DNA of 13,784 nucleotides, from assembly GCA_937907055.1 (NCBI GenBank), contig CALCTW010000122.1, positions 1 through 13,784 on the forward strand, in the 5' to 3' direction. Numbering within the stretch: the stretch's first letter is position 1; each line of letters begins with the position of its first letter. Shown piece after piece: positions 2 through 13,451 of the stretch. The notes under the pieces were generated by a model, which did not search any database, was not told the DNA's origin, and saw only the letters and a program-made list of their open reading frames with translations. This stretch comes from an uncultured Clostridia bacterium (lineage in GTDB: Bacteria > Bacillota > Clostridia > Christensenellales > Aristaeellaceae). The position numbers were made by a program, and so were the translations under genes.

Positions 2-1738
2 TATCGCCTCATGTGCAAGATGTTCTATGACCGCGACAAGACAAAGTTCAAGTATCTGTTGCTCTTTGGCGAGGGCTCGTATGACAACCGCGGTCTGTCG
101 AGCGTGAAGCCCAACCGCATCCTCACCTACGAGAGCGAAAACAGCACCAGCGAGACAAACTCTTATACAAGCGACGACTTCTTTGCTTGTCTCGAAGACA
201 ATGCGTCAAAGACTCCCACTGCCTGCAAGTTGAGCATTGCGGTAGGTCGTTTTCCATCGGCCAACCCCGCCGAGGCAAAGAGCGATGTTGACAAGCTCAT
301 CAAGTATGTGCTCTCACCCGATTATGGCCCCTGGCGCAACAACGCATTGCTATCGGCCGAGTGTAAGACCGAGACCTATGCCGACATGCATCAAGCTCAA
401 GCCGAGGGCATTGCAAAACTGATGGAAAACACCTTGGAAACAGGCTTTGCCATTGACAAGGCATATGTGTCAATGTTCCCCAAGGCAGTTAACGAGACAG
501 CCATAGTGAATATGGACGACCGCTCATCGTTTGAGGGCAACCGTCACTACACCGAGGCCCTGAAACGCGGTCAGTACTTTGCCTCTTACATAGGCCATGC
601 AGGATATAAGAACTTCACCGGCAGCCGCCTGTGGACCACACCGCATGTAACATCGGTTACCTATCCCCACCTGCCCATCTTCACAACCGCATGCTGCGAT
701 GTGGCACGATTTGACAGCGACCAGCGTGGCATTGCCGAGCACATGTTCCATGTGCCCAACGGTGGCGCAATCGCCCTGCTCACAGCAACCCGCGAGGTGT
801 TTGCCGACAGCAACCACAAACTGAACAAGAGTTGGACAACCCAAATGTTCACATGGGACCGCCCCGACGGCCTTCCCCGTCTGGGTGATGTATACCTGAC
901 AGCAAAGAAGAACCTCACATCATCGGCTCTCAACCACTTCAAGTATGTACTCTTTGGCGATCCTGCAATGAAGCTCGCCTACCCCGTACCTCTGTTCAAG
1001 ATCACTCAAGTCAACGGCGTGGACAACGATGGAGAAACGCAAGCCACAACACAACCTCTAGGTGAGGTAAAAGTGACCGCTCAAGTGACCAAGAAAGACG
1101 GTAGCCTCGACACCGACTTCAATGGTGACGCAACACTCACAATCTATGACCAGAAGCGCTTCTTCAAGAATGCAAACGATGTACAATTCCCATCTGACGT
1201 TATAGATATTTACTACCCCGAGGAGATTCTCACTCAGGTTCAAGGTCGTGTAGTTAACGGCATCTTCAACGGCACAGCCATCATGCCCCGCTACTGCCGC
1301 GCAGCAGGCGAGACAGGCAGCATTCGCATCTTCGCCCACCAGGATGGCACCGACAAGATGGTCAACGGCGTGTATCGCAACCTGCTCATCAACAAGTTTA
1401 CAACCGCGGGGGCTGTTACCGACGACAACGCTCCCGTAATCGAGAGCATGTACCTTAACGAGGAACAGTCATTCAACGACGGAGCAGTGGTTCCCACCAA
1501 CTCTACACTGTACATCAAGGCAAGCGACGATGTGGCCCTCAACAACCAGACGGTGTCTATGGGCAACAACATGCGTCTCGTGCTCGACGGAGGCAAGACA
1601 TCATACTATCTGGTCAACAACTTTGCAACCGTGGACAATGGTGGCAAGGACATGGAGATAGCCTTCCCGCTTAGCGACTTGAGCGAGGGACAGCACACAC
1701 TGTCCTATACCGTTCACGACATGGCAGGCAATGCTGCA
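2..1738 (+). CDS. Peptidase C25 family / type IX secretion sortase PorU-like protein, internal fragment (5' end runs off the window, 3' end cut at the 1721-1745 junction, no stop codon)
   Basis: The frame is open from nt 2 (YRL precedes the first Met at 11). The translation shows the gingipain/PorU layout: YLLLFGEGSYDNR, SYTSDDFFACLED, IAVGRFP, GPWRNN, His in YIGHAGY, Cys in FTTACCDVARFD, GGAIALLTATREV, VLFGDPAMKLAYP. Beta-sandwich-like sequence follows, ending QHTLSYTVHDMAGNAA. Past ~1740 the same frame becomes Gly/Ala/Asp/His-rich text that is simply the antisense of the DegV gene. Confidence 0.8.
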
Positions 1739-1745
1739 GGAGAGC
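1721..1745. other. Breakpoint between two unrelated, convergent, stop-less gene fragments (PorU-like vs DegV-like); probable chimeric or artificial join
   Basis: The + frame reads ...TVHDMAGNAA up to 1738. The - frame reads ...YHPLSCSIACH down to 1721. The 18 nt atggcaggcaatgctgca (1721-1738) make sense in both genes (MAGNAA / CSIACH). Neither gene has a stop codon or terminator, and there is no intergenic DNA. Confidence 0.7.
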
Positions 1746-2539
1746 GGATGATAGGTGACCTTGAAATCCGGGAAGGCCTTCTGCACGCGTTCGGTCCAGC
1801 GCGCGGCGTCCTCGGGATTGGGGAAGGTGCCGGCGGTGCTGACCTGCAGTTTCTCCTTCGGGATATCCTTGAACTGCTTTTCCATATCGGCTTCCGCGAG
1901 ACGGATCAGAGTCTTCTGCATATGGATCTCACCGCGGACCACGCACTGGGCGTCCAACTTGCCGCCGCGGATATTCAGCACGGGGTGCAGATTCAGCGCG
2001 GAAGCCAAAGAAGCGCCGGCGGCAGTTACACGGCTGCTCTTTTTCAGGAATTTCAGGGTATCAACGCAGATATAGATGCTGGCGATGCCGCTGTCACGCT
2101 CCAGAATGTCCTTGATCTCCTGTCCGCCTTTTCCTTCTTTGGCCATCTCCAGCGCGTTATAGACGCTCTTATACTGGCTGATGGAAATGCGGCGGTTGTT
2201 CACGACGAAGACTTTGCCTTCGTAATCTGTCGCCAGCTGCGCGGCGGTTTCGCAGGAATTGCTGAGACCGCTGCTCATGGGGATGTAGACCACCTCATCC
2301 GCGCCGTCAGCCAGCGCTTTTTCCCAAAGGTCGGTCACATCGGCAGGGGAAGGCTGAGAAGTGGTCACGTTCTTCCCGCTTTCCAGCGCGTCGTACAGAT
2401 CGTTGTGCGTGATATCGATGCCCTCGGTATAACAGTTGTTATCCACAATGACGGGCATGGGCAGAACATAGATGCCGTTTTCCAGACCTTCCTGAACGGA
2501 GATGCCGCTGTTTGTGTCGGTGATGATGGCAGTTTTCAT
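1721..2539 (-). CDS. DegV family (fatty-acid-binding) protein, C-terminally truncated at the junction (273 aa recognisable)
   Basis: ATG at 2539 is preceded by aagagg (ctgcaaaagaggtattgtATG). Translation: MKTAIITDTNSGIS..., TSQPSP, VVYIPMSSGLSNS, IYICVDTLKFLKKSSRV, LNLHPVLNI, ending HPLSCSIACH. A DegV protein would normally continue here with a (V)GPG-type motif and ~10-20 more residues. Instead the frame continues as antisense PorU sequence (VVNGIGQCVLSL...). Confidence 0.85.
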
Positions 2540-2613
2540 ACAATACCTCTTTTGCAGAATGATCATCATGATGGAATGGTTCGCGTTTCGCACGGAGGCG
2601 GAGCGCGAGTGGC

Positions 2614-2622
2614 AATATAACA
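2614..2622 (-). promoter_or_regulatory. Candidate extended -10 element (TGTTATATT) for the DegV-family gene
   Basis: The minus strand reads gtgTGtTATATTgcc about 75 nt upstream of ATG 2539. No convincing -35 was found. Confidence 0.3.
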
Positions 2623-2775: not shown

Positions 2776-2806
2776 AATAAAAAGCAGCGAAGCGTTTTTG
2801 CTTCGC
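2776..2806 (-). terminator. Rho-independent terminator after the DUF4298-like gene
   Basis: Stem gcgaagc (2787-2793) pairs with gcttcgc (2800-2806) around a 6-nt loop. On the minus strand it is followed by TGCTTTTTATTT. It lies 16 nt after the stop at 2822. Confidence 0.75.
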
Positions 2807-2821
2807 CGCGGAATGATATTT

Positions 2822-3160
2822 TCAGGGTTGGCGGATGATCGACCGCGCGGCCTTCTCCGTGTCTTTCTTCAGGGCTTTCATCTGTGAGCACAGGCGGAGG
2901 GTATCGCTGAGCAGATCATAGACGCCGTCCTGTGAAAGAACGCCGCGCTTTAATTCATGGGGGATCCTGCCTTCCTCGTCGTCAGCATAATCCTGCTGCC
3001 AGAGCGGAGAGGCATAGTATTCGCTCAGTTTTTTCAGGGCGGGCAGGGCATTCTGAAACGCGTCCATGGCAGACTCGAGATCTTCGGCCGCGTGTAAGCA
3101 TTGATCAAAACACGATTCCATTTCTTTGATACGATTGATCTGTTCGTTATCCTGTTCCAT
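2822..3160 (-). CDS. DUF4298-like small cytoplasmic protein (112 aa)
   Basis: RBS aggaaagga precedes ATG 3160. MEQDNEQINRIKEMESCFD...LKKLSEYYASPLWQQDYADDEEGRIPHELKRGVLSQDGVYDLLSD matches my memory of the DUF4298 pattern (EYY..W..D...DE.G.LP..LKRGVLSED.VY.LL). It has its own promoter-like element and terminator. Confidence 0.7.
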   Translation of the reverse strand: MEQDNEQINRIKEMESCFDQCLHAAEDLESAMDAFQNALPALKKLSEYYASPLWQQDYADDEEGRIPHELKRGVLSQDGVYDLLSDTLRLCSQMKALKKDTEKAARSIIRQP

Positions 3161-3219: not shown

Positions 3220-3248
3220 ATTATAGCACAGACAGGGATTTATGAAAA
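3220..3248 (-). promoter_or_regulatory. Sigma-A-type promoter candidate for the DUF4298-like gene (TTTTCA-17 nt-TATAAT with TGC extended -10)
   Basis: The minus strand reads TTTTCA (3248-3243), a 17-nt spacer ending in TGC, then TATAAT (3225-3220), about 60 nt upstream of ATG 3160. Confidence 0.5.
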
Positions 3249-3389: not shown

Positions 3390-3800
3390 TCAGCCTAATT
3401 TACGGCCGATCGTGACGATGTTCTTTCCGTCCTTCCGTTCATAGGTGAACAGATCCATACTTTTTTTGACCATGTAAATGCCAAGGCCGCCGATATCGCG
3501 TTCCTCCGCGGACAGGGTCACATCCGGATCTTCCTTTTCAAGGGGATTGAAGGGCTTGCCCCAGTCGTTCAGGATCAGGAGGATCATGCTGTCCTCATCG
3601 CGGTAATCCAGCTGGATCAGCGCTTCACCGGTCGCGGGCGCGTAGGCGTAGGAGGCAATATTGACATACAGTTCTTCCAGCGCCACCAGCAGCTGCATGG
3701 TGATCTTCGGAGGACATTCGAGATTCTCAAGTTCTTCTTCCAGAAAGGCGTTGACTTGATCCAAACTGTCACGGGTGGCAGTCAACCGCAATTCTTTCAT
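3390..3800 (-). CDS. Anti-sigma-factor-type serine protein kinase (RsbW/SpoIIAB-like, HATPase_c_2), 136 aa
   Basis: The size and motifs fit the family: N-box ALEELYVNIASYAY, G1-like ILNDWGKPFNP, G2 DIGGLGIYMVKKSMD. Its ATG (3800-3798) overlaps the upstream stop as ATGA, indicating translational coupling. Confidence 0.85.
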   Translation of the reverse strand: MKELRLTATRDSLDQVNAFLEEELENLECPPKITMQLLVALEELYVNIASYAYAPATGEALIQLDYRDEDSMILLILNDWGKPFNPLEKEDPDVTLSAEERDIGGLGIYMVKKSMDLFTYERKDGKNIVTIGRKLG

Positions 3801-5497
3801 TGCTTTTTCCCCTCCTTGCCGTAGTAGTCGAAGCCGAGCATGGTGATATCATCGAACTGCGGCGCGGTGCCGACAAAGCGGTTGACATCCTCGTGCACCT
3901 TCTGCAGCAGTACAGACAGCTTTTCGCCCTTGTTGCGGTTCAGGGCATCCAGCATACGGGCGGTGCCGTACAGTTCATTACGGTCGTTGGTGGCCTCCGG
4001 TACACCGTCGGTGTAGACGAACAGGGTGTCGCCGGGGAAGAGTTCAAACTCGTGCTGACGGAAGGGGATGCCCTCCATGGCCGCGACAGCGGGGGAATGA
4101 CGGTATTTGATGAGTTCAAAGTCACCGCCCGCGCGGCGAATGACGGGATCCTCGTGGCCGGCGTTGGCTGCCACGCCCTTGCCGGTGGAAAGGGTGAGGA
4201 TGCCGATCCAGACTGTGACGAACAGCTGCGCGTGATTGCCCTCACAGAGCATATTGTTCGCGTCGGCCAGGATCTCCGAGGGGGAACCGCCGGCCTGCGC
4301 GCGCCGCTTGATCAGGGTCTTGGCGATGGCCATGAACAGCGCGGCGGGAACGCCCTTGCCGGAAACATCCGCCATGACCATGGCCATATGATCGTCATCG
4401 ATCAGGAAGAAATCATAGAAGTCACCGCCCACTTCCTTGGCAGGCGTCATGCTGGCGTAAATGTCGAACTCGTGACGATCAGGGAAGGCCGGGAAAACAC
4501 TGGGCAGCATATCCGCCTGGATCTGGGTGGCAACGTGCAGCTCCGCGCCCACGCGCTCCTTTTCAGCGGTGATATCGGTGATATTTTTGATGTAGTCGTT
4601 GATCTCCTTCTCCATCTTCGTCATGGAGTCATACAGGGTGCCGATCTCATCCTGACGGTTGATGTTGACCGACGAGAAGATATTCTGCTGAGACTGATCA
4701 CGGTCGGATACGAAGTTGCCGGCTGTTTCGGAGATCAGCTTGATGGGACGCACCATCAGGCGGTTGAAGATGAAAAGGATGACGGGCATCAGCACCAGCG
4801 TCAGTACCAGCACCAGCAGACCGATATTGATCAGGAACTGATAGTCCTTTTCCTTCTCGGCGTTCATGGAGATATCCGCGTAGGCGTGCGCCACGATATT
4901 GCCCTCGGAGTCGTGGATGAGGGAGGTGGCGGTACAGAGCCAGCCGTACTCGGGGTAGGTGGTAATGAAGGCCGGGATATCATAATCGCCCCTGCGGATC
5001 TTTTCCAGATTTTCTTCTTCGATGTATTCGATCCAGCCGATGGGCGTGGAATCATCGATGGAACCGTCCATCAGGTAGATGACGGTGCCGTTTTCCACAT
5101 CCCACAGGTTGATGTACAGATAAAGCACATCATTGGCGCGGAGCAGATCCTGCAGACGGGCGACCATGTCGGCGTAGCCGGGCATGTCATATACTTCGCT
5201 GTACAGCGCCAGATAGGCTTCCTGCTCCTCTTCGGTCATGGCTTCCATGTCCGGAACAGCGCCGTGCTCTTCGGCATAGGCCTCATAGATCGCGCGAACG
5301 CGTTTTCCGTAGAGATCCAGCTGATCCCCGTCCACCATCAGCGCTTCGGTCTTGGTCAGGTTGACGGTCGTGGTCTTGTACTGATCATTGGTGGTCGATT
5401 CGTGAACGGCGTAACTGACCACAACGGAGATCGCGGACAGGGTGAGGGAAAACAACAGGATCAGCGCGAACATTTTCGCGCGAAGCGATTTTTTCAT
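3797..5497 (-). CDS. Membrane sensor phosphatase: TM / extracytoplasmic Cache-like domain / TM / HAMP / PP2C (SpoIIE/RsbU-type), 566 aa
   Basis: RBS agaggagga precedes ATG 5497. N-terminal TM is AKMFALILLFSLTLSAISVVVSY and the second TM is LINIGLLVLVLTLVLMPVILFIF. HAMP-like region: RLMVRPIKLISETAGNF...QDEIGTLYDSMTKM. PP2C motifs: EVGGDFYDFF, MVMADVSGKGVPAALFMA, NAGHEDP, LFVYTDGVPEA, FDDITMLGF. Confidence 0.9.
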   Translation of the reverse strand: MKKSLRAKMFALILLFSLTLSAISVVVSYAVHESTTNDQYKTTTVNLTKTEALMVDGDQLDLYGKRVRAIYEAYAEEHGAVPDMEAMTEEEQEAYLALYSEVYDMPGYADMVARLQDLLRANDVLYLYINLWDVENGTVIYLMDGSIDDSTPIGWIEYIEEENLEKIRRGDYDIPAFITTYPEYGWLCTATSLIHDSEGNIVAHAYADISMNAEKEKDYQFLINIGLLVLVLTLVLMPVILFIFNRLMVRPIKLISETAGNFVSDRDQSQQNIFSSVNINRQDEIGTLYDSMTKMEKEINDYIKNITDITAEKERVGAELHVATQIQADMLPSVFPAFPDRHEFDIYASMTPAKEVGGDFYDFFLIDDDHMAMVMADVSGKGVPAALFMAIAKTLIKRRAQAGGSPSEILADANNMLCEGNHAQLFVTVWIGILTLSTGKGVAANAGHEDPVIRRAGGDFELIKYRHSPAVAAMEGIPFRQHEFELFPGDTLFVYTDGVPEATNDRNELYGTARMLDALNRNKGEKLSVLLQKVHEDVNRFVGTAPQFDDITMLGFDYYGKEGKKQ

Positions 5498-5515: not shown

Positions 5516-7279
5516 TTAAATGCGAATGACCAGAGAATTGAAGCCTTGATACTGACGATAGAAGAAGGATTTCACCTTCTTGCGGATCATCTGGATGCCG
5601 ATCGCGGAAATGTCCATCTCCTCATCGGCATCTGTCATCCGCTTCTCCTCCAGAGAGAAGGGATTGAACTGGACCGCGTTGTCGCGGATGTGGAATTCGA
5701 ATTCGCCGTCCTCCTGCGCGATCAGCGTCAGCTGGATATTGCCGTCCCTGGTGTGGGGGAAGCCCTCGCGCACGATGGCGGAGCAGACCTCCTCGGCCAC
5801 CAGATTGACCACCATCTGCTGCTTCATGCTGGAATCCCACTTTTCGCAGAAGGCTTCGATCTCTTCAAGCAGTACGGGCAATTCGTTCAGATCGCTGCGG
5901 ATGACGCCGCGGCAGATGCGTTCCTCTTCAGGCTCCGCCTGTCTGAAGCGCTTGCGTGCCAGGCAGATGACGGCATAGAGCAGAAGACTGACCCACTCCG
6001 TGACGGGGAAGAACCACCAGATGACGGTGCTTCCTCCGAAGGAGAAGAGCAGGATCATGGGGAACAGGATGACGCCCTTGCGGAGAAGAGTGAGCAGAGC
6101 CGCGCGTTTTTCATTGCCGCGGGCCTGTTCGTAGCCTTCCAGCACGATGGAGACGGCGCTGAAGAGCGCGCCCGAGCAATAGATGCGAAGGGCCTGAGAG
6201 CCCAGAAGAAGGCTTTCCTCCGCGTTGACGCCGAACAGCATGCAGATCCAGTCCGGCTTGACGGCGATGAGCAGGATCAGGGCGGAAACGGCGAAGAAGG
6301 TCAGGTACAGACCGGTCTGCAGCGCGCGCTGCATGCCGTTTTTGTTCTTTTCACCAAAGAGGGTGCTGACGATGGGCTGGATGGCGTTGACCGTGCCCTC
6401 GCTCAGATAGGCGACGACATAGGAGGTGTTCTGCAGCACATCGAAAACAGCCACGCCGTTTTCACCGGCCATGCCCAGCAGCAGACGATTGACCAGCATG
6501 AAGAAGAAAAACTGGCCGATATACTGCATGGAGGTGGAAAAGCCGGTGCGGAAGCAGCGAAAAACATCCTTGAAGCTGACTTTGGGCGCCCGGATCCGGA
6601 GCGCGGTCTGCTTTTTACCGAGGATACCCGGCAGATAGAGCAGGATGGTGAGGAACTGTCCGCTGAGGGTGGAGAGCGCGGCGCCGCTGACACCCATATC
6701 CAGCACCAGCACCAGCAGCACATTCAGGCTGATATCCGCGATATTGCCCGCGACGAACGCGGCGGTCGCCAGCTTTTCCCTGCCATCGGCAACGAGATAG
6801 TAATTGAGGATATAATCCAGTACAAAGAAGGGGATGGAGAGCATGATCAGACGGGCATAGGTGAGCGCCCAGTCGTAGATCTGGATCTCATCGGGGGAAT
6901 TTCGGTTCGCGCCCAGCAGGAAAACGACCTGCGGGCTGAGGATGAGCAGCAGCAGCGCGATTCCGGCCGCAAGCATGGCACCGCCCCAGAGAAGATTGTT
7001 GAAATTCTTCCGGGCTTCATCGGGCTTGCCTTCCGCCATTAATTTGGAGAAACGGATGGAGCCGCCCGTGCCGAGGCCGTAGATCAGCACATTGATGATC
7101 ATATACAGGGGCAGGCAGATGCTGACCGCGGTCAGGCCTTTTTCGCCCAGCCGCTGGCCGATCACCAGCGCGTCCGCGATATCACCGATCGAAAGACCGA
7201 TCGCGGAGAGCATGGCAGGGACCCAGAGCCGCCGAACCATTTTGCCGGAAAAGGGGTCTTTGATCTTTTTATCCTTCAT
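5516..7279 (-). CDS. MATE/MOP-family membrane transporter fused to a C-terminal degenerate RsbW-like HATPase domain (587 aa from ATG 7279)
   Basis: N-terminus: MKDKKIKDPFSGKMVRRLWVPAMLSAIGLSIGDIADALVIGQRLGEKGLTAVSICLPLYMI...GLGTGGSIRFSKLMAEGKPDEARKNF, a typical MATE start followed by ~12 hydrophobic segments. The last ~130 aa (nt 5519-5914) are soluble and align by eye with the 136-aa kinase (see findings). I prefer start 7279 over 7303 because of the weak ggacggcgg RBS and the typical MATE N-terminus. Confidence 0.8.
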   Translation of the reverse strand: MKDKKIKDPFSGKMVRRLWVPAMLSAIGLSIGDIADALVIGQRLGEKGLTAVSICLPLYMIINVLIYGLGTGGSIRFSKLMAEGKPDEARKNFNNLLWGGAMLAAGIALLLLILSPQVVFLLGANRNSPDEIQIYDWALTYARLIMLSIPFFVLDYILNYYLVADGREKLATAAFVAGNIADISLNVLLVLVLDMGVSGAALSTLSGQFLTILLYLPGILGKKQTALRIRAPKVSFKDVFRCFRTGFSTSMQYIGQFFFFMLVNRLLLGMAGENGVAVFDVLQNTSYVVAYLSEGTVNAIQPIVSTLFGEKNKNGMQRALQTGLYLTFFAVSALILLIAVKPDWICMLFGVNAEESLLLGSQALRIYCSGALFSAVSIVLEGYEQARGNEKRAALLTLLRKGVILFPMILLFSFGGSTVIWWFFPVTEWVSLLLYAVICLARKRFRQAEPEEERICRGVIRSDLNELPVLLEEIEAFCEKWDSSMKQQMVVNLVAEEVCSAIVREGFPHTRDGNIQLTLIAQEDGEFEFHIRDNAVQFNPFSLEEKRMTDADEEMDISAIGIQMIRKKVKSFFYRQYQGFNSLVIRI

Positions 7280-8156
7280 GCCGTACCGCCGTCCACATTT
7301 CATTGATTTTTTCGGGAAGCATTTGTTTTTTCATGACGCGCAGACCTTCGATCTCAAGATCATCCTCGAGATTGACGAAGTGAACGTTTTCCGGCAAAAG
7401 CCGCATGAGTTCTCTGCGCATATAGTAGCCGAGGCAGGGATCCTTGACGCATTCCTTGGCCAGGAAGAGATCGAATGTATCGTCGCTGAGCATATAGCCG
7501 GCGGCGACACCGAAGGGCGCGCCGTCCGCGTACATCAGGATGCCCCGGATGCCCAGCTGTTCCCGTTTCATCAGCGGTTCCGTATCCTCTTCATCGCCGT
7601 ACATTTCCAGCACACCGCCGGCAGTGCGGCTTCCGCGCCAGAGGCGGATGATCTCCAGCGCTTCCCCGACATTTTCATCATTGAGGGGCTTGATGGTGAT
7701 GGTGTGATCGCGCTCCGCGCGGTGGACCTTGTTGCGCAGCTTTTCATAGCGCTTTCCGGCGCAGGCGATGTGCCCCTGCCGGCTGACGATATACTCATTA
7801 TCTCCCGCGGAGGGGGATATAACGAAAAGACCGGGGAAGTGATTCTCCAGCCATTGAACGTCCTGCTCCCGAAGGTAGCAGAGCGAGAAATCCGGCTCGG
7901 CAAGATGGGCGGAAATAAAGCGGAACGCGGCATCTGAATCCCCGCAGGGGAAGAGCCATGTGTTCGCGCCTTTCGCGATGTATTGAAGGGTGAAAAGATC
8001 ATCCTCCAGATAAAGCTGAGCGCCGACAAAGCGCCGCCAGATATAGAGCGTATTAAAAGCGTGTGAAGAAGACCGGTGGTCGTAGTGATATCTGACCGCT
8101 TCGATCTGCGCCGCGTCTGACAGGGACAGAAGACCGGCCGGGCCTGAAGGAATCAT
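7269..8156 (-). CDS. DUF2156 / LPG_synthase_C-like protein (homologue of the MprF aminoacyl-phosphatidylglycerol synthase domain, tandem GNAT-like fold), 295 aa
   Basis: Motifs remembered from stand-alone DUF2156 proteins: HAFNTLYIWRRF, LFPCG, GDNEYIV, AGKRYEKLRNKVHR, GILMYADGAPFGVAAGY, and the C-terminal VNLEDDLEIEGLRVMKKQMLPEKINEMW. RBS aaagga precedes ATG 8156. Confidence 0.75.
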   Translation of the reverse strand: MIPSGPAGLLSLSDAAQIEAVRYHYDHRSSSHAFNTLYIWRRFVGAQLYLEDDLFTLQYIAKGANTWLFPCGDSDAAFRFISAHLAEPDFSLCYLREQDVQWLENHFPGLFVISPSAGDNEYIVSRQGHIACAGKRYEKLRNKVHRAERDHTITIKPLNDENVGEALEIIRLWRGSRTAGGVLEMYGDEEDTEPLMKREQLGIRGILMYADGAPFGVAAGYMLSDDTFDLFLAKECVKDPCLGYYMRRELMRLLPENVHFVNLEDDLEIEGLRVMKKQMLPEKINEMWTAVRHEG

Positions 8157-8182: not shown

Positions 8183-8482
8183 TTATTCGATGTTCAGGAT
8201 GTCGACAAAACCGGTGACCTCAAAGATGTCCATCAGATCATCATTGCAGTTGCGGATGACCATTTTGCCGTGCTTGGCGTTCATGGCCTTCTGCGCCATC
8301 AGCAGAACGCGCAGACCGGCGGAAGAAACATACTTGAGAGCAGCCAGATCAAAGGTCAGATCGGTGACATCGGGCAGGATGGTGTTGAGCTCTTTCTCGA
8401 AAGCGGGAGAAGAATTGGTATCCAGACGTCCTTCCAGAGAGATGGTCATTTCGTGGCCGTTGATCGTTCTTTTCATTTCCAT
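8183..8482 (-). CDS. STAS-domain anti-sigma-factor antagonist (RsbV/SpoIIAA-like), 99 aa
   Basis: AGGAGG (complement of 8492-8497) lies 9 nt before ATG 8482. ISLEGRLDTNSSPAFEKEL...LTFDLAALKYVSSAGLRVLL...MVIRNCNDDLMDIFEVTGF is the canonical STAS pattern. It includes the phosphorylatable Ser position (VSSAGL). Confidence 0.9.
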   Translation of the reverse strand: MEMKRTINGHEMTISLEGRLDTNSSPAFEKELNTILPDVTDLTFDLAALKYVSSAGLRVLLMAQKAMNAKHGKMVIRNCNDDLMDIFEVTGFVDILNIE

Positions 8483-8825: not shown

Positions 8826-8895
8826 TCGATGTAATGAGAGGCGCAGGACGGCGGAAAAGCAGGCGCCCCGGACAAGCGGAAAGGAGGAGACTTTC

Positions 8896-9423
8896 ATGGC
8901 GGAAAGAGAAAAACGGCCGCTTCAGGAGGTGTATGAGGACTATTTTTCATACATCTACAACATGATGTATATGCATGTGCTGAACCGGGAGACCGCGGAG
9001 GATCTGACCAGCGAAGTGTTCATGAAGGCTTTCTCCGCTTACGCGCAGTATGATCCGAAGCGCGCCGGGGAGAAGACATGGCTGTCGACCATCGCCAATC
9101 ATCTGCTGATCGATCATTACCGTTCCCGTTCCGCGAACAAATCCGATCTGGTGGAGGATGAGGTGCTGACCGCGATCCCCTGTGAGGACGCGGACATGGA
9201 AAGGATCTGTGATACCGCCAATGACGCGGTGCGCGTTCTGATGAGCGAGCTGGATCCGCAGGAGCGGCATCTGCTGGAGATGCGGTACTATATGGACATG
9301 AAAAACCCTGAGATCGGGGAAGTGCTGGGCATCAACGCGAAGGCTGTCAGCGAGCGGATCCGCCGCCTGACGGAAAAGTGCCGGAAGATCGCGGAGGTGC
9401 GTCATATACAGGAATGGCTGTGA
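8896..9423 (+). CDS. ECF-type (sigma-70 family, regions 2 and 4 only) RNA polymerase sigma factor, 175 aa
   Basis: aaggagg (8881-8887) lies 8 nt before ATG 8896. Region 2: EDLTSEVFMKAF...KTWLSTIANHLLIDHYRSR. Region 4 HTH: LDPQERHLLEMRYYMDMKNPEIGEVLGINAKAVSERIRRL. Confidence 0.9.
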   Translation: MAEREKRPLQEVYEDYFSYIYNMMYMHVLNRETAEDLTSEVFMKAFSAYAQYDPKRAGEKTWLSTIANHLLIDHYRSRSANKSDLVEDEVLTAIPCEDADMERICDTANDAVRVLMSELDPQERHLLEMRYYMDMKNPEIGEVLGINAKAVSERIRRLTEKCRKIAEVRHIQEWL

Positions 9424-9514
9424 ACAGCGTTCAGGAAGAGGCGAAGCGTGGATTTGGCCTGTTCGCGGCGTATATTCATTTGCGGGCGACCGCTTGAATA
9501 AAAGAGGAGAACAA

Positions 9515-9730
9515 ATGATGGACCTGTTGAAAAAAGCGGATTTTTCAAAGGAAACAGACCTGAAGGAACGCCTGTTCAGACAACTGTTTTCAGAACATAT
9601 TCTCGCGTTTCCGAATCGTGAACAGTTGACCGATGATGAAACGGAAATGGTTTTCGCGGCGGGTGCTCCCGGAGAACAGCAGCCGAAGGCTGACAGGGTA
9701 CAGGAGATCCCGGAGCGGAATAAGAACTGA
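9515..9730 (+). CDS. Small acidic hypothetical protein (71 aa) co-transcribed with the ECF sigma; no TM segment, no zinc-finger anti-sigma motif; leader-peptide-like LTDDETEMVFAAG segment
   Basis: gaggag (9504-9509) lies 5 nt before ATG 9515 (a second ATG is at 9518). The ORF ends 57 nt before the terminator that starts at 9788. Its coding status rests on the RBS, its position in the operon and its length only. Confidence 0.55.
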   Translation: MMDLLKKADFSKETDLKERLFRQLFSEHILAFPNREQLTDDETEMVFAAGAPGEQQPKADRVQEIPERNKN

Positions 9731-9847: not shown

Positions 9848-12037
9848 TCATTCCGGTGTTACCATCTGACGGCGTACCAGATCGGCAAAAAGACCGTTCT
9901 TTTCGATCAGTTCTTCATAGGTGCCGTCCTCCGCGATGATGCCGTCCTTGAGGAACAGGATGCGGTCGCACTGACGGATGGTGGACAGACGGTGCGCGAT
10001 CACAAGGCGTGTGCAGCGCATCTTATCCATGGCTTCGGAAACGTGCTTCTGCGTCACATTGTCCAGCGCGCTGGTGGCTTCGTCCAGGAACAGGATCTTG
10101 GGCTTGGGCGCGACCGCGCGGGCGATCATGAGGCGCTGACGCTGTCCGCCGGAGATACCGCCGCCGCCCTCCTGAATGATGGTGTGCATGCCCATGGGCA
10201 TGGCGCGGATATCATCGGCGATGCCGGCGACCTCGGCGGCCTGCCACGCGTCATCCAGATTCAGCCACGGCGCGGAAATGGTGATGTTGGAGAAGATATC
10301 GCCCCAGATCAGCTTGCCGTTCTGCATGACCACGCCGATCTTGCGGCGGAGGGACTTGAGATCGAGACTGTCGATATTCTTCCGGTCGTAGTACACAGCG
10401 CCCTTCTGCGGCTTTTCAAAGCCCAGCAGAAGACGCATCAGCGTGGACTTGCCGCAGCCGCTTTCGCCCACGATGGCCACGTACTGGCCGGGGCGGATGC
10501 GGAAGGAGATGTCCTTGAGGATCTGACGATCGGATTCGGTGTCATACTTGAAGGACAGGTGGCTGACTTCGATGCCGCCGGAGAGACGGGTGACGACTTC
10601 CTTGTCTTCCGCCAGCTCGGGCTGCGCGTCCATCAGCGGCTTTACGATCTGCAGGACGGGGCGGATATCGGCAATGGTCTGCGCGATGCCTACGAGCGAG
10701 GCGAAGGCGGTGGCGATATAGCCGTAGGCGGCCATGAAGCTGTTGTAGTTCGCCACGGAGATCTGCATCTCGGTGGCCTTGTAATACAGAATGATGGTAC
10801 CGATCAGGCTGATGGCGCCGGTGACGACATTGCCGAGCAGCATGACGGCAGGCGGGGAATAGAGCAGCTGCGCGTGCCTGGCGTACAGATTGCCCCAGCG
10901 CGCGAAGGCGCGTTTTTCCGCGCCGCAGGTGCGGATCTTCTGCATGCCGCTGATCACGGAGTGCACCATGCCGCTTTCCTTGGCGGCGATATTCATTTCT
11001 TTTCCGGTGATCTTGGTGGAGACCAGCACGGTGATGATGCCCCATACCAGCGTGGCCAGCAGGATCAGCAGGGAGGGCACGACCAGAGACGGGGAATAAC
11101 GGAAGATCTGCGTGACATAGACCAGCGAGAACACGCCGGTGATACCCATGGAGAATACGGAAGAGACCAGCGCGTCGCACAGGGAATTGAGATAGCTGAC
11201 ATGCTGGCTGAGCTCACCGGAGCTGTAGTTGCGGAAGAAAGCGGTGGGCATGGAGAACAGGCGCATCATGGACGCGGATTCCACATTCATGCTCAGCTTC
11301 ATGCCGATGCGGTTGAGAAGCAGTGTCTTGATCCCGTTGATCACCTGACTGGCGATGGTCACGCTGATCATGAAGACGACGACGGAGATCAGAAGCTGAT
11401 AACTGCCGTAGGTGACCACCGATGAGAAGAGCAGGTTGGTCAGCTTTGGGATCACCATGCCCAGCAGCGTGATGATGGCCATGGCAACGAAATACCAGAA
11501 GAAATCAACAAAATCCAGCGAGGTGCGCATGTACTCGATCAGATCCCGGACGGAGATCGGGCGCAGCGGCATCGGGCGGTAGAAAACGATGGCTTCTTCA
11601 TCGATCAGATCGGCGTTCTTGCCGGTGATCGTGATCATTTTGCCGGTGGTGAAATCGCGGAAGGCATAGCCGCCGAACTTGCGCGGGAGAAGCGCAACGG
11701 GCTTGCCGTCCTCCCGGCGCACGGCCAGCATGGCACCCACGGCATCCTTGTGCCAGCCCTTGCGCAGCTTGACGGTGCGGCGCATGATGCCGCAGGGCTG
11801 CAGGGCGTAATCCATCTGGGCATTCACATCCTTGATGGATTCGGGCACCTCACGGGGCTTTAAGTGGTAATACTTGCAGATGTCCTCAAGCGCGTCCTTG
11901 GCGGCGCGGCTTTCATCCTGCCAGGCCTGCTGGATCTTGCGGCCCACCACGGCACCTACGATGTTCAGGTAGGCTTCGGACAGGACCTCATCATCTTTCA
12001 GCTTCGCGTAGGCGATCTGATCATCAAACCAACTCAT
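9848..12037 (-). CDS. Type-1 ABC exporter half-transporter (N-terminal ~165-aa accessory domain / 6-TM domain / NBD), bacteriocin/NHLP-exporter-like, 729 aa
   Basis: RBS aaggggg precedes ATG 12037. TM region runs from FVDFFWYFVAMAIITLLGMVIP onward. NBD motifs are intact: Walker A GESGCGKST, Q-loop VVMQNG, signature ISGGQRQRLMIARA, Walker B ILFLDEATSALD, H-loop LVIAHRLSTI. Confidence 0.85.
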   Translation of the reverse strand: MSWFDDQIAYAKLKDDEVLSEAYLNIVGAVVGRKIQQAWQDESRAAKDALEDICKYYHLKPREVPESIKDVNAQMDYALQPCGIMRRTVKLRKGWHKDAVGAMLAVRREDGKPVALLPRKFGGYAFRDFTTGKMITITGKNADLIDEEAIVFYRPMPLRPISVRDLIEYMRTSLDFVDFFWYFVAMAIITLLGMVIPKLTNLLFSSVVTYGSYQLLISVVVFMISVTIASQVINGIKTLLLNRIGMKLSMNVESASMMRLFSMPTAFFRNYSSGELSQHVSYLNSLCDALVSSVFSMGITGVFSLVYVTQIFRYSPSLVVPSLLILLATLVWGIITVLVSTKITGKEMNIAAKESGMVHSVISGMQKIRTCGAEKRAFARWGNLYARHAQLLYSPPAVMLLGNVVTGAISLIGTIILYYKATEMQISVANYNSFMAAYGYIATAFASLVGIAQTIADIRPVLQIVKPLMDAQPELAEDKEVVTRLSGGIEVSHLSFKYDTESDRQILKDISFRIRPGQYVAIVGESGCGKSTLMRLLLGFEKPQKGAVYYDRKNIDSLDLKSLRRKIGVVMQNGKLIWGDIFSNITISAPWLNLDDAWQAAEVAGIADDIRAMPMGMHTIIQEGGGGISGGQRQRLMIARAVAPKPKILFLDEATSALDNVTQKHVSEAMDKMRCTRLVIAHRLSTIRQCDRILFLKDGIIAEDGTYEELIEKNGLFADLVRRQMVTPE

Positions 12038-12049
12038 ACTTTCACCCCC

Positions 12050-12775
12050 TTACTCGCTGCAGACCAGCGTGGTATAAAGACCGCCGTTGGCCAGCAGTTC
12101 GGCATGCGTGCCGCGTTCCACGACCTGACCTTTTTCCAGCACCACGATCTCATCACAGTCGCGGATGGTGGACAGGCGGTGCGCGATCACGATGCAGGTG
12201 ATGCCGCGGTCGGTGATCCGCTTCACCACATCGTATTCGGTCTTGGCGTCCAGCGCGGAGGTGGCCTCATCCATGATCAGGATGGTGGGCTCCTGCGCCA
12301 GCGCGCGGGCGATCTCAAGACGCTGCCGCTGACCGCCGGAGAAGTCCTTGCCGTCTTCCAGCAGCCTGTGCTCATAGCCGCCCTCGCGCACCATGATATC
12401 CTCATGGATGCAGGCGTCGCGCGCGGCCAGGATCATTTCAAAATCCTCGATGGAGGTGTTCCACATTTTCACGTTGCCGGAAATGGTATCGTCGAACATG
12501 TTGATGTCCTGATCCACCACGGCCACGGAGCCGGTAAAGCGCTTGCGGTCGATCTCGGAAATGGGCTTGCCATCAAAGAGGATCTCGCCCGACCATGGCT
12601 GATACAAGCCGGAGATCAGCTTAGCCAGCGTGGATTTGCCGCAGCCGGAGGGGCCGACGATGAGGAGCTTTTCCCCCTTGCGGACAGTGAGATTGATGTC
12701 ATGAAGGGTCGGCGCAGACTGGGCGGTGTATTGAAAGGAAAAATGCTCAAAGCGAAGCAGGATATCATTATCCAT
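12050..12775 (-). CDS. Stand-alone ABC nucleotide-binding domain of the exporter (ABCB/bacteriocin-exporter) type, 241 aa, no membrane or peptidase domain
   Basis: RBS gggagg (atcgggaggaaacaccATG) precedes ATG 12775. Motifs are intact: Walker A GPSGCGKST, Q-loop VVDQD, signature FSGGQRQRLEIARAL, Walker B ILIMDEATSALD, H-loop IVIAHRLSTIRDCDEIVVLEKGQVVERGTHAEL. Its stop lies 12 nt before the 729-aa gene. Confidence 0.85.
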   Translation of the reverse strand: MDNDILLRFEHFSFQYTAQSAPTLHDINLTVRKGEKLLIVGPSGCGKSTLAKLISGLYQPWSGEILFDGKPISEIDRKRFTGSVAVVDQDINMFDDTISGNVKMWNTSIEDFEMILAARDACIHEDIMVREGGYEHRLLEDGKDFSGGQRQRLEIARALAQEPTILIMDEATSALDAKTEYDVVKRITDRGITCIVIAHRLSTIRDCDEIVVLEKGQVVERGTHAELLANGGLYTTLVCSE

Positions 12776-12852: not shown

Positions 12853-13401
12853 TTATTCCGCCTTCAGGCTGCCCTTCTTGGGCTTGGCAGCGGCATAGGC
12901 AAGGCAGAGCAGAGTGCCCACCACGGCAGTGGTGACAATGTTCGCCACGGCGGAGACGAGGCCCTGAGCAAAGAGCTTCTCAACAGGCTCGGCATAGATC
13001 AGGATATCCATCACGCGAGCCACAGCGCCCCAGCAGATCACATGACCAACCAGCTGAATGAGATTGAACTTCACGATGGCAGCCTTGCCGAACTCGCCCT
13101 CGTTCAGCTTGAACTTTTTGCCCACAAGACCCATGATGCCGCCGAACACGCCGGAGGCGATGACCCAGCTCCACCACACGCCCCAGCCGTAGCTGAAGTC
13201 GATGAGGGCATGGCCGATGAGACCGATGAGCGCACCCACCAGGGGGCCGAAGAGCGCGGCCATGAAGGCCAGCAGGCCGTACTGGATGGAGATGTTGGTG
13301 TTAGGCACGGGGCTGGGGATCGCAACGAAGCGGCCCAGTACAAAGAACAGAGCTGCGCCGATGCCGATGGCTACGATGGTCTGAACAGATGACTTTTTCA
13401 T
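12853..13401 (-). CDS. ECF-transporter substrate-specific (S) component, UPF0397-like integral membrane protein, 182 aa
   Basis: RBS aaaggaga precedes ATG 13401. MKKSSVQTIVAIGIGAALFFVLGRFVAIPSPVPNTNISIQYGLLAFMAALFGPLVGALIGLIGHALIDFSYGWGVWWSWVIASGVFGG matches the UPF0397/ECF-S pattern as I remember it. It has about 6 hydrophobic helices. Confidence 0.75.
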   Translation of the reverse strand: MKKSSVQTIVAIGIGAALFFVLGRFVAIPSPVPNTNISIQYGLLAFMAALFGPLVGALIGLIGHALIDFSYGWGVWWSWVIASGVFGGIMGLVGKKFKLNEGEFGKAAIVKFNLIQLVGHVICWGAVARVMDILIYAEPVEKLFAQGLVSAVANIVTTAVVGTLLCLAYAAAKPKKGSLKAE

Positions 13402-13451
13402 ACTTCTATTTCTCCTTTGCGATTTATGTGACTTCCCATCACAATGCATAC

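Follow-up and report, generated by a model that had tools for sequence, protein, structure and literature searches.

Organisation of the locus

The window, i.e. the whole stretch of DNA analysed (13,784 nt; contig CALCTW010000122.1 of an uncultured Clostridia bacterium, assembly GCA_937907055.1), carries on its minus strand a five-gene operon in the order STAS, DUF2156, MATE with C-terminal tail, membrane PP2C and active kinase, whose genes overlap or are closely spaced, with the fusion gene in the middle (Table 1). The fusion gene lies in an uninterrupted minus-strand ORF (5516-7303, 595 aa). The database gene call uses the ATG at 7279 and yields 587 aa, as in the 100% identical sequence P0005 (587 aa); an alternative ATG is located further upstream, at 7303. 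The start at 7279 overlaps the stop of the DUF2156 gene by 11 nt. AGAGGAGGA lies between the TAA stop codon that ends the ORF (5516-5518) and the ATG of the PP2C gene, which is placed 18 nt past the fusion-gene stop and preceded by a strong ribosome-binding site. The kinase gene in turn overlaps the PP2C stop by 4 nt, and an ECF-type sigma factor gene is found in divergent orientation at 8893-9423.

Table 1. Features of the operon, with positions in the window and the basis of each assignment.
Feature	Position	Strand	Basis and remarks
STAS single-domain protein (anti-sigma-factor-antagonist type), 99 aa, first gene of the row	8183..8482	minus	Pfam STAS E 2e-15
DUF2156/LPG_synthase_C protein, 295 aa, aminoacyl-tRNA-dependent transferase superfamily	7269..8156	minus	PF09924 E 1e-16
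Whole fusion gene, MATE exporter with C-terminal kinase-dead RsbW-like domain	5516..7279	minus	587 aa plus stop; AF2 pLDDT 89.9, pTM 0.90
MATE core, residues 1-445, 12 transmembrane helices	5945..7279	minus	Pfam MatE E 8e-35, AF2 model
Kinase-dead RsbW-like (HATPase_c_2) domain, residues 455-587	5519..5917	minus	PF13581 E 6e-10, tail model
Degenerate N-box, residues 496-507 (EEVCSAIVREGF)	5759..5794	minus	Glu497 kept, Asn position = Ala501
Degenerate G1 box and FNPF motif, residues 532-541 (RDNAVQFNPF)	5657..5686	minus	Asp kept, first Gly replaced by Ala535
Degenerate G2 box, residues 556-565 (DISAIGIQMI)	5585..5614	minus	GGLG of the kinase replaced by SAIG
Membrane PP2C (SpoIIE-type) phosphatase, 566 aa	3797..5497	minus	Pfam SpoIIE E 2e-45, HAMP weak
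Soluble RsbW-type serine kinase, 136 aa, intact N/G1/G2 motifs	3390..3800	minus	PF13581 E 7e-21

The STAS protein exceeds the cut-off of NCBIfam TIGR00377 (63.6 bits against 53.45) and carries the acceptor-serine motif Y-V-S-S-A-G-L, with Ser54 as the putative acceptor; in related loci, all 72 STAS domains examined have the motif as Y-[ILV]-S-S-A-G-L. The PP2C is laid out as a transmembrane segment, an extracytoplasmic segment, a second transmembrane segment, HAMP and the PP2C domain, and the kinase is canonical in its motifs (EELYVN, DWG, GGLG).

The transporter core

Pfam MatE (PF01554) matched the fusion ORF in two stretches (E 8e-35), and the AF2 model comprises 12 helices (H11-H445), so that the protein shows both the two repeats and the 12-helix fold of the MatE family. 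In a Foldseek search, the best matches of the core were the PfMATE structures 6hfb and 4mlb, with a target TM-score of 0.85, and the fusion family shows no variation at D36 and D182. With NCBIfam TIGR00797 the protein scored 139.9 bits and did not reach the cut-off of 147.4, and the nearest tail-less MATEs found share 22-29% identity with the fusion clade; by these measures it is a divergent clade of the MATE family. In their fold and in the invariant acidic residues of TM1 and TM5, the fusion proteins resemble exporters of the DinF/PfMATE type; unlike them, they carry a cytoplasmic domain, whereas the known members found are about 440-460 aa long and have none.

Assignment of the core to the MurJ/Wzx branch was considered and rejected. 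MurJ and WzxE ranked 37th or lower in the fold search, with E 4e-9 to 2e-7; about 36 drug-type MATE matches came before them (E down to 1e-14), and PF03023 gave a weak match, in only a few members of the family. Given this ranking on modelled structures, an MprF-like lipid-flippase role for the core is not favoured.

The C-terminal RsbW-like domain

PF13581 (HATPase_c_2) was matched by residues 469-593 of the 595-aa ORF at E = 6.2e-10 (39.6 bits, curated cut-off 27.4), over profile positions 2-125 of 127. The sequence-only reading had aligned the last residues of the transporter by eye (5519-5914, residues 456-587 of the fusion protein) with the 136-aa kinase encoded two genes downstream; BLASTP reproduced this alignment with 31% identity at E = 1e-10. 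In Foldseek, an AF2 model of the tail alone (pLDDT 90.8) was most similar to SpoIIAB (1th8, 1til, 1tid, 1l0o; E 9e-8, TM 0.72-0.76), followed by UsfX (8ih8, 8jzt), RsbW (6m36, 6m37) and the SiaB-SiaC complex (6kko). The tail thus has the GHKL/Bergerat fold of anti-sigma kinases in a predicted, not a solved, structure. By sequence the similarity to SpoIIAB is marginal (profile comparison, E 0.007); phmmer against the PDB sequences returned just E ~0.07 to SpoIIAB for the tail alone, and no match at E <= 0.01 for the downstream kinase. In the AF2 model, about 9 residues link TM12 to the tail.

The initial proposal of a MATE transporter with a C-terminal RsbW-like domain is therefore upheld by profile, predicted fold and the family-wide conservation described below. 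That the gene encodes a drug-type MATE exporter with a complete RsbW/SpoIIAB-fold domain as its cytoplasmic C-terminus is well supported.

Occurrence of the fusion

The same layout was found in 98 homologues of about 545-660 aa, 82 of which carry precomputed matches to both PF13581 and PF01554; in the other 16 the tail falls below the Pfam threshold. About 100 protein clusters at 90% identity represent the fusion, at 35-78% identity, in at least 171 species genomes, mainly of Lachnospiraceae and Oscillospiraceae. The family is widespread among Clostridia of the human and animal gut; Enterocloster lavalensis KCTC 15153, Oscillibacter valericigenes An907 and Clostridium sp. AF27-2AA are examples of carriers in culture. 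A profile search with the tail yielded 102 clusters at 50% identity with E < 1e-30, the full-length matches being about 570-590 aa long and the domain lying at the protein C-terminus in nearly all among the matches listed. The architecture is thus not rare in databases, where all members are annotated merely as 'MATE family efflux transporter'.

This conservation argues that the fusion is real and old. It also bears on the notion that the tail has no part in signalling, being either the relic of a decayed domain or a passive aid to oligomerisation or stability, or that the fusion of two genes is artefactual. The 16 tails under the Pfam threshold could be taken in that sense, as could one close relative that is seemingly split into products of 455 aa and 103 aa on one contig. 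Against this, the tail is strongly conserved, with eight residues (F477, E496, E497, P540, F541, Y574, G579 and N581) invariant across sequences that are 35-78% identical. The frame is continuous, with a proper stop and a downstream ribosome-binding site, and the architecture recurs across the species given above. A frameshift or merged-gene artefact, named at the outset as an outcome that would overturn the fusion, was rejected on these grounds, and we regard a relic or passive domain as highly improbable.

Two further arrangements serve as Rosetta-stone hints for the switch proposed below, but each was seen in a lone database sequence and may be a gene-calling artefact: P0255 combines MatE, dead tail and intact kinase in a single chain, and P0216 combines DUF2156, MatE and tail.

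Loss of the ATP-binding motifs

Motif residues were counted in a MAFFT alignment of 156 domains, comparing 85 tails with 64 separate kinases from the same loci; the register was taken from this alignment and from an ungapped profile alignment of the tail to SpoIIAB and RsbW. The tail lacks each of the three features of an active kinase, namely the N-box Asn, the G1 D-x-G and the G2 G-x-G. For the N-box, the sequence-only reading had correctly recognised that the Asn is lost but had assigned its place to Ser500; in the alignment (tail EEVCS-A-IVREGF vs SpoIIAB SEAVT-N-AIIHGY) it is Ala501 that stands opposite the Asn, a register shift of one. Its other two substitutions were recovered as described, Gly to Ala in G1 (D-N-A in the tail, where the kinase has DWG and SpoIIAB has DEG) and GGLG to SAIG in G2.

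These losses extend across the family. At the Asn position the residues of the 85 tails are A55, S8, V8, L5, T3 and N3, as opposed to N in 62/64 co-encoded kinases; the first G1 Gly is A in 75 and G in 4, with G in 62/64 kinases; and the first G2 Gly is A in 40, S in 17 and G in 4, with GGxG in 62/64 kinases. All three motif residues are intact in 62/64 of the separate kinases, free or fused to PP2C. The proposal that the tail is probably catalytically dead is reinforced by this contrast within the same loci, and it is well supported, as far as alignments can tell, that the tail domain is devoid of Mg-ATP-binding residues across the whole fusion family. From the overall fold, and from the N-box Glu, G1 Asp and one G2 Gly that are kept, one could argue that the tail is nevertheless an active serine kinase or ATPase of an unorthodox kind, using other residues for Mg-ATP. 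Loss of the N-box Asn, however, abolishes activity in the GHKL kinases studied, the residue is absent in 82/85 tails, and a canonical kinase is encoded alongside; we therefore think an active tail very unlikely.

Other parts of the pocket are preserved. Of the 85 tails, 84 retain the adenine-contacting G1 Asp and 77 the last G2 Gly, and the pocket-lining EE, RD and FNPF motifs, the last comprising F538, N539, P540 and F541, are nearly invariant; a lid loop of low confidence (residues 542-555, pLDDT <50 at 546-550) precedes the G2 box. Because the Asp is kept, nucleotide binding without catalysis is conceivable, and the pocket may bind a nucleotide or another ligand. A tail that in this way couples export to the energy or metabolite state independently of STAS, without catalysis, would account for the conserved pocket residues. 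It would have to do so with the Mg-coordinating Asn and both hinge glycines lost family-wide, and would leave the strict linkage to PP2C, STAS and kinase genes unexplained, which makes it an improbable reading.

RsbW Glu49, the N-box Glu, hydrogen-bonds the acceptor Ser56 of RsbV (PMC7340262), and this Glu is invariant in the tails. The column of the STAS-contacting Arg of SpoIIAB (R20) and RsbW (R23) is occupied by Leu471 here and by S, T, L, M or D in the tails, Arg not being conserved; judged by eye, the local kinase has no Arg in this column either, so that the apparent loss in the tails is a weak argument against STAS docking.

A partner-switching neighbourhood without a sigma factor

Gene neighbourhoods were compared in 80 loci, 40 of which are fully flanked, with presence scored within 6 kb. 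In the fully flanked loci, PP2C was present in 40/40, an intact kinase in 31/40, STAS in 30/40, DUF2156 or a formyltransferase in 38/40 and a sigma factor gene in 3/40; about a quarter of these loci thus lack STAS and kinase genes over the 6 kb scored, with PP2C always there. PP2C follows the fusion gene directly in 72/75 loci, DUF2156 precedes it directly in 38/71, and the kinase is frequently fused to PP2C. A STAS protein with the Ser motif, a PP2C and an RsbW-type kinase are accordingly encoded together in the window and across the loci, and the conserved gene order bears out the suggested link of the transporter to a STAS/kinase/phosphatase switch. Clustering of all remaining ORFs in the 80 loci revealed no recurrent sigB/sigF-type sigma gene and no other recurrent component, the largest extra gene group being a response regulator (18/80). 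As judged from gene content, the operon constitutes a sigma-less partner-switching module. Besides the MATE exporter, a second type of transporter ends in a degenerate RsbW-like domain, namely an amino-acid ABC importer, fully fused, in 7 of the loci.

That the tail serves as a membrane-anchored anti-sigma factor, holding a sigma factor until displaced by STAS as in RsbW-SigB or UsfX-SigF, would fit its fold matches to SpoIIAB, UsfX and RsbW, the existence of UsfX-type anti-sigma factors without kinase activity (PMC7693655) and the divergent ECF-type gene in the window. The few sigma genes at the 3/40 loci, however, are ECF-type (BldN-like), no sigB/sigF-type gene recurs, and this role offers no reason for a fusion to a transporter. 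The ECF class is not known to be bound by RsbW-type proteins. With sigma genes rare in the loci and no co-encoded cognate sigma factor, we rejected this role; it has hardly any likelihood left.

The neighbourhood can also be read in the opposite direction, with the transporter as sensor. The tail would then pair with the active kinase in a beta1/alpha1 heterodimer or contact the adjacent PP2C in the way that RsbT activates RsbU, such that the transport cycle or substrate load tunes STAS phosphorylation and STAS acts on another target. PP2C is the sole universal neighbour, directly downstream in nearly all loci, and its frequent fusion to the kinase would put all three proteins at the membrane; P0255 even places dead tail and intact kinase in tandem in one chain. 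RsbW dimerises via beta1 and alpha1 (PMC7340262), and the kinase-dead RsbW3 binds RsbW1, probably as a heterodimer (PMC7693655), which provides a precedent. Against such a sensor stand the lack of an alternative output protein conserved in the loci and a PP2C that possesses input segments of its own (extracytoplasmic and HAMP) and in which no RsbU_N-type docking domain was detected. In the model, moreover, beta1 of the tail begins only about 9 residues past TM12, which may hinder a cross-strand dimer. Altogether we consider a sensor role rather unlikely.

Proposed mechanism

In the reading we prefer, and to which we give an even chance, the tail is a kinase-dead docking domain by which a sigma-less partner switch acts directly on the exporter. 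An envelope or extracellular cue, received through the extracytoplasmic and HAMP segments of the PP2C, would lead to dephosphorylation of STAS. Unphosphorylated STAS would then dock on the dead tail, which would hold it but neither phosphorylate nor release it, and docking would alter transporter activity, e.g. by restraining or freeing the C-lobe via the short tether. The separate active kinase would re-phosphorylate STAS and so reset the system. The tail would thus be the output receiver of the switch, and may stem from a kinase domain that was duplicated, lost its activity and came to serve as a phospho-sensitive adaptor for STAS. That STAS docks on the tail and that transport is gated were posed as hypotheses in the sequence-only reading too and keep that standing here, and we infer STAS binding by the tail, its loss of catalysis and its cargo from sequence comparisons. 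Since STAS and kinase are absent in about a quarter of the loci and PP2C is always present, the main partner of the tail could instead be the phosphatase or the kinase. The co-conserved DUF2156 and Fmt-like formyltransferase genes suggest as cargo an aminoacylated or N-formylated metabolite or lipid.

The closest precedents for docking without catalysis are mycobacterial. UsfX of M. tuberculosis and RsbW1 and RsbW3 of M. smegmatis are, like the tail, RsbW-fold proteins that have lost the motifs or activity of a kinase, and UsfX structures (8ih8, 8jzt) rank high in the fold search with the tail. RsbW1, which is the UsfX homologue and is kinase-dead, binds RsfB, a STAS protein, with RsbW2 as the sole kinase; such dead homologues thus still join partner switching while another paralogue, RsbW2, phosphorylates STAS (PMC7693655). 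Unlike the tail, these proteins are soluble, free-standing anti-sigma factors with SigF as output; here the dead domain is covalently attached to a 12-helix exporter with no linked sigma factor.

SpoIIAB/SpoIIAA/SpoIIE and RsbW/RsbV/RsbU of Bacillus share with the operon a STAS protein with acceptor Ser, a PP2C and a HATPase_c_2 kinase, and SpoIIAB and RsbW are the best structural matches of the tail, in which the Glu contacting the acceptor Ser is kept. The operon differs from them in its second, degenerate RsbW-like domain on a transporter, in the absence of a linked sigma factor and in its phosphatase, which is a HAMP-containing membrane protein. In these last respects it resembles SiaABCD of Pseudomonas aeruginosa, a partner switch with a membrane HAMP-PP2C, the kinase SiaB and a non-sigma output. 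SiaA is the best NCBIfam match of the window phosphatase (E 9e-20, far below the family cut-off), and 6kko, the SiaB-SiaC complex, appears among the fold matches of the tail. The effector protein on which STAS-like SiaC acts directly is a diguanylate cyclase, and it binds SiaC with no RsbW-like adaptor in between; in the fusion, by contrast, the effector would be a transporter with the dead kinase domain as adaptor.

A domain of the partner-switch type at the cytoplasmic end of a membrane effector is found in SLC26/SulP transporters, which have a C-terminal STAS domain, and in cyanobacterial All4160. These are the mirror image of the fusion, in that the effector bears the STAS half; the fusion transporter bears the RsbW half and STAS is free. 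All4160 is a STAS-glycosyltransferase whose fused STAS domain is controlled by a separate kinase and PP2C, and partner switches can control non-sigma targets directly (bioRxiv 10.64898/2026.04.08.717354).

Taken together, and only tentatively, dead RsbW-like domains might be portable receivers that plug transporters into a sigma-less switch, with a cue sensed by PP2C gating transport post-translationally via free STAS. The operon of these gut Clostridia would then be a regulated pathway for the synthesis and export of an envelope lipid or metabolite bearing an aminoacyl or formyl group, functionally an MprF analogue split over several proteins; this wider scheme is possible, though we would not expect all of it to hold.

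Implications

The initial remark that no described MatE-HATPase_c_2 architecture was known to the sequence-only reading agrees with our search: the literature searched, scant in subscription-journal papers, contained no MatE + HATPase_c_2 protein and no partner switch acting on a MATE transporter. The fusion suggests that a phosphorylation switch is coupled directly to a transporter in a manner not described so far. Partner switches are known classically for their control of sigma factors, and cases of direct action on enzymes have begun to emerge only recently. If confirmed, the fusion would be the first case found of a partner switch wired to membrane transport, and would illustrate a simple evolutionary route to bring any protein under STAS control. 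MATE transporters are usually regarded as not being regulated at the protein level, a view that an inbuilt regulatory domain would revise for the fusion clade.

The MATE protein and its C-terminal domain

The MATE ORF is continuous (Pfam MatE, E 8e-35), and HATPase_c_2 was matched on residues 469-593 of the 595-aa ORF (E 6.2e-10, 39.6 bits against a cut-off of 27.4 bits) over profile positions 2-125 of 127. In BLASTP, the tail shares 31% identity with the downstream kinase (E 1e-10); the likeness that the sequence-only reading had drawn by eye thus holds, far exceeding what chance would give. A full-length AlphaFold2 model, built from an alignment of 51 sequences, was confident (pLDDT 89.9, pTM 0.90) and predicts twelve helices up to residue 445, a short linker of lower confidence and then an alpha/beta domain, with a disordered loop (542-555) at the expected place of the ATP lid. 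When predicted structures were compared with the PDB, the membrane part was nearest to drug-type MATEs (PfMATE 6hfb and 4mlb, target TM-score 0.85), with MurJ and Wzx ranked far below. The separately modelled tail (pLDDT 90.8) had SpoIIAB, the protein originally proposed for comparison, as its best match (1th8, 1til, 1tid, 1l0o; E 9e-8, TM 0.72-0.76), followed by M. tuberculosis UsfX, B. subtilis RsbW and P. aeruginosa SiaB; the sequence profile of the tail reached SpoIIAB only marginally (E 0.007). The transporter core has the appearance of a working MATE of the drug type; TM1 and TM5 each have an Asp that is invariant in the family, putatively equivalent to the protonation sites of PfMATE.

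Loss of the ATP-binding residues

Conservation of the tail is high over the 98 family members: F477, E496, E497, P540, F541, Y574, G579 and N581 are invariant and the motifs RD(N)A, FNPF and YRxYQGFN nearly so. The Mg-ATP residues are absent. All 156 HATPase_c_2-like domains of the 80 loci were aligned with the window kinase, the window tail and a SpoIIAB fragment; the domains compared were 64 kinases (33 free-standing, 31 PP2C-fused) and 85 MATE tails. The N-box Asn was present in 62/64 kinases and 3/85 tails, the first Gly of G1 and that of G2 each in 62/64 and 4/85, the G1 Asp in 63/64 and 84/85, and the last G2 Gly in 63/64 and 77/85. At the Asn column, the tails have Ala (55), Ser (8), Val (8), Leu (5), Thr (3) and Asn (3), at the first G1 Gly column mostly Ala (75), and at the first G2 Gly column mostly Ala (40) or Ser (17). 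Both glycine changes first noted in the window protein thus extend family-wide. The loss of the N-box Asn also stands, but the residue in its place is not Ser500: the ungapped alignment with SpoIIAB and RsbW puts Ala501 there, in a register that also matches the following H/G/aromatic positions.

We strongly infer that the tail is catalytically dead, because loss of the Mg-coordinating Asn abolished activity in the GHKL kinases studied; as the adenine-contacting Asp is kept, it may bind nucleotide without catalysis. Possibly the tail pocket binds a small ligand or nucleotide as a sensor, with which the conservation of the pocket residues apart from the Asn and Gly is consistent.

Distribution of the fusion

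A whole-protein search returned 98 proteins of ~545-660 aa (35-78% identity, 93-100% query coverage), 82 of them with precomputed PF13581 + PF01554; the next-best MATEs (22-29% identity) are without the tail. Scanning one genome per species gave relatives in 171 genomes, from which the 80 loci were retained, mostly from gut and rumen Lachnospiraceae, Oscillospiraceae and other Clostridia, with Enterocloster lavalensis KCTC 15153, Clostridium sp. AF27-2AA, Oscillibacter sp. MSJ-31 and O. valericigenes An907 as cultured carriers. Given the continuous ORF, the 98 homologues of similar size and the 171 genomes, the fusion is not two genes joined by a frameshift, and the conservation of the tail across the family contradicts its being a relic or artefact. 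Against 1.84 billion representatives, the tail profile gave 102 clusters at E < 1e-30; among the matches listed, the tail is C-terminal in nearly all proteins, the full-length ones being ~570-590 aa and the shorter ones resembling contig-edge fragments, which points to a tail type essentially specific to this MATE clade. Where a current database name is given, it is 'MATE family efflux transporter' only.

A near-identical copy that clusters with the window protein at 90% is split on one ENA contig into MATE-only (P0127, 455 aa) and tail-only (P0128, 103 aa) products, probably by a sequencing frameshift. Several loci encode another MATE paralogue (see table), equal in length but more divergent; in L005, the one checked with Pfam, its tail is below threshold. 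The distant MATE proteins P0114-P0116 (~645 aa) bear a different nucleotide-binding-type appendage, PF13189 (cytidylate-kinase-like).

Gene neighbourhood

From the STAS to the kinase gene, the genes of the window overlap or lie no more than 26 nt apart; the MATE start overlaps the DUF2156 stop, and AGAGGAGGA lies between the MATE stop and the PP2C start. The ORFs of the 80 loci were searched against the window proteins with phmmer and afterwards jackhmmer. In 72 of the 75 loci with enough sequence, the fusion gene is immediately followed by PP2C, which in 30 of those 72 is fused to an intact kinase (~700 aa, PF07228 + PF13581). Among 40 fully flanked loci (at least 6 kb on either side), PP2C occurs in 40, an intact-type kinase in 31, STAS in 30, DUF2156 in 24, an Fmt-like formyltransferase (PF00551, absent from the window) in 29, either of the latter two in 38, and ABC transporter ATPase homologues (NHLP-type exporter pairs and others) in 18. 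Y-[ILV]-S-S-A-G-L, presumably the phospho-acceptor region as in SpoIIAA and RsbV, is invariant in 72/72 STAS domains. When the remaining ORFs of the loci were clustered, neither a sigma factor of sigB/sigF type nor any other recurrent component emerged. The ECF sigma factor of the window is probably not part of the module, since a homologous sigma is linked in only 3 of the 40 loci; this count and the clustering make it unlikely that the tail is a membrane anti-sigma factor.

The formyltransferase (~275 aa, in most other loci) lies between transporter and PP2C or upstream of DUF2156. The Pfam scan made for L019 shows a STAS-APH fusion (see table); STAS-matching ORFs of similar length adjoin the ordinary 99-aa STAS gene in L021, L028, L039, L049, L053 and L076. 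In the window, the position of the ATPase-only gene beside the riboflavin S-component gene suggests that it is 5'-truncated, and the Peptidase_C25 ORF, stopless and antisense to the complete DegV gene over ~900 nt, points to gene truncation, rearrangement or an assembly join around 1600-1700.

Coordinates of features in the window and in related loci (L numbers)
Feature	Location	Positions	Strand	Remark
Peptidase_C25 ORF	window	11-2620	+	enters at left edge
DegV	window	1601-2542	-	Pfam-scanned span; listed ORF extends to 2623
Terminator-like hairpin	window	2784-2809	-	3' of DUF4298, not kinase; sole strong one in row (consensus match)
DUF4298	window	2822-3160	-	
Promoter-like site	window	3220-3248	-	upstream of DUF4298; 10/12 matches, with TG (consensus match)
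HATPase_c_2 kinase, 136 aa	window	3390-3800	-	
Membrane HAMP-PP2C (SpoIIE-type) phosphatase	window	3797-5497	-	
MATE gene	window	5516-7279	-	alternative ATG at 7303
DUF2156 / LPG_synthase_C protein	window	7269-8156	-	
STAS protein	window	8183-8482	-	
ECF sigma factor	window	8893-9423	+	BldN-family-like, below equivalog cut-off; divergent from STAS gene
78-aa ORF	window	9494-9730	+	no Pfam match; after ECF sigma gene
ABC exporter, 729 aa	window	9848-12037	-	NHLP-bacteriocin-type; TIGR03797 688 bits, slightly below 709.4-bit cut-off
ATPase-only gene	window	12050-12775	-	exporter's expected partner; aligns to TIGR03796 positions 480-709 of 710
ECF riboflavin S-component	window	12853-13449		
ABC importer tail ORF	L005	8433-9512		
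ABC importer tail ORF	L011	2667-5411		
ABC importer tail ORF	L017	2-3334		
ABC importer tail ORF	L034	4997-8392		
ABC importer tail ORF	L049	13822-16512		
ABC importer tail ORF	L053	14097-17498		
ABC importer tail ORF	L066	5660-8359		
Second MATE paralogue	L005	3566-5263		
Second MATE paralogue	L015	2700-4511		
Second MATE paralogue	L022	2732-4513		
Second MATE paralogue	L031	16175-17965		
Second MATE paralogue	L056	6045-7763		
STAS-APH fusion, 393 aa	L019	6046-7227		APH-type phosphotransferase domain, PF01636
Fmt-like formyltransferase	L030	11747-12574		example
DUF2156-formyltransferase fusion	L052	8292-10010		Pfam-confirmed
DUF2156-formyltransferase fusion	L055	8331-10007		apparent

Proposed role of the tail

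The module lacks a sigma factor. Its membrane PP2C, which has an extracytoplasmic segment and HAMP, provides the input, the STAS protein serves as messenger and the kinase resets the switch; among the other constant proteins, only the transporter, in its tail, has a domain of the kind used in partner switches. Most simply, the tail would be the output receiver of the switch; we infer every step beyond the tail's being an RsbW-fold domain that is degenerate and encoded within a conserved partner-switch operon. The inactivated kinase-domain copy would still recognise unphosphorylated STAS, would be unable to phosphorylate and hence to release it, and the phosphorylation state of STAS would set the occupancy of the transporter's cytoplasmic face. 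As support for STAS recognition we count the alignment of the invariant tail Glu497 with RsbW Glu49, which contacts the acceptor Ser of RsbV (PMC7340262). The division of labour would resemble that in mycobacteria, where RsbW2, a distinct protein, is the sole kinase and kinase-dead RsbW1 (UsfX homologue) binds the STAS protein RsfB (PMC7693655), and direct non-transcriptional outputs of partner switches are documented, for example Anabaena STAS-glycosyltransferase fusions (bioRxiv 10.64898/2026.04.08.717354).

In the strongest rival reading, the tail pairs with the kinase or PP2C and the transporter acts as sensor. PP2C being the only universal neighbour is in its favour, as are the dimerisation of RsbW-type proteins via beta1 and alpha1 (PMC7340262), the binding of RsbW3 to RsbW1 (PMC7693655) and one database protein, P0255 (721 aa, representative search), in which MatE and the degenerate tail are followed by an intact HATPase_c_2 kinase (SNIV, DDG, GGLG); against it, the loci contain no conserved alternative output.

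Pfam describes DUF2156 as the domain by which MprF-type lipid aminoacylases act as aminoacyl-tRNA-dependent transferases, and it is found fused to the formyltransferase (see table) and, in P0216 (871 aa, representative search), to MatE and the degenerate tail within a single chain; P0216 and P0255, each a single database sequence, may be gene-calling artefacts. From this function, the overlap with the transporter start and the fusions, one may reasonably guess, though no more than that, that the cargo is a lipid or metabolite carrying an aminoacyl and/or N-formyl group.

A second transporter class

Most of seven related loci encode a polar-amino-acid ABC importer, fully fused, with an extra C-terminal domain of ~115 aa. 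SBP_bac_3, BPD_transp_1 and ABC_tran lie in one chain in the three scanned loci L011, L034 and L053; the scanned ORF of L005 holds the ATPase and extra domain only. The extra domain matches the kinase profile of the loci (jackhmmer E 1e-13 to 1e-22) and has the FEELC, FNP and GxN motifs, without N-box Asn or G2 box; judged by these sequences, the importer represents a second class of transporters whose tail is RsbW-like and degenerate.

MATE exporters, the RsbW fold, kinase-dead RsbW homologues and sigma-less partner switches are known kinds. In the searched literature we found no description of a kinase-dead RsbW domain covalently joined to a transporter, of the strict tie of such a fusion to a PP2C, STAS and kinase operon, or of the recurrence of a degenerate RsbW-like tail, within the same loci, on an amino-acid ABC importer. 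Based wholly on sequence and predicted structure, the fusion is of clear interest for the fields of bacterial signalling and transport.
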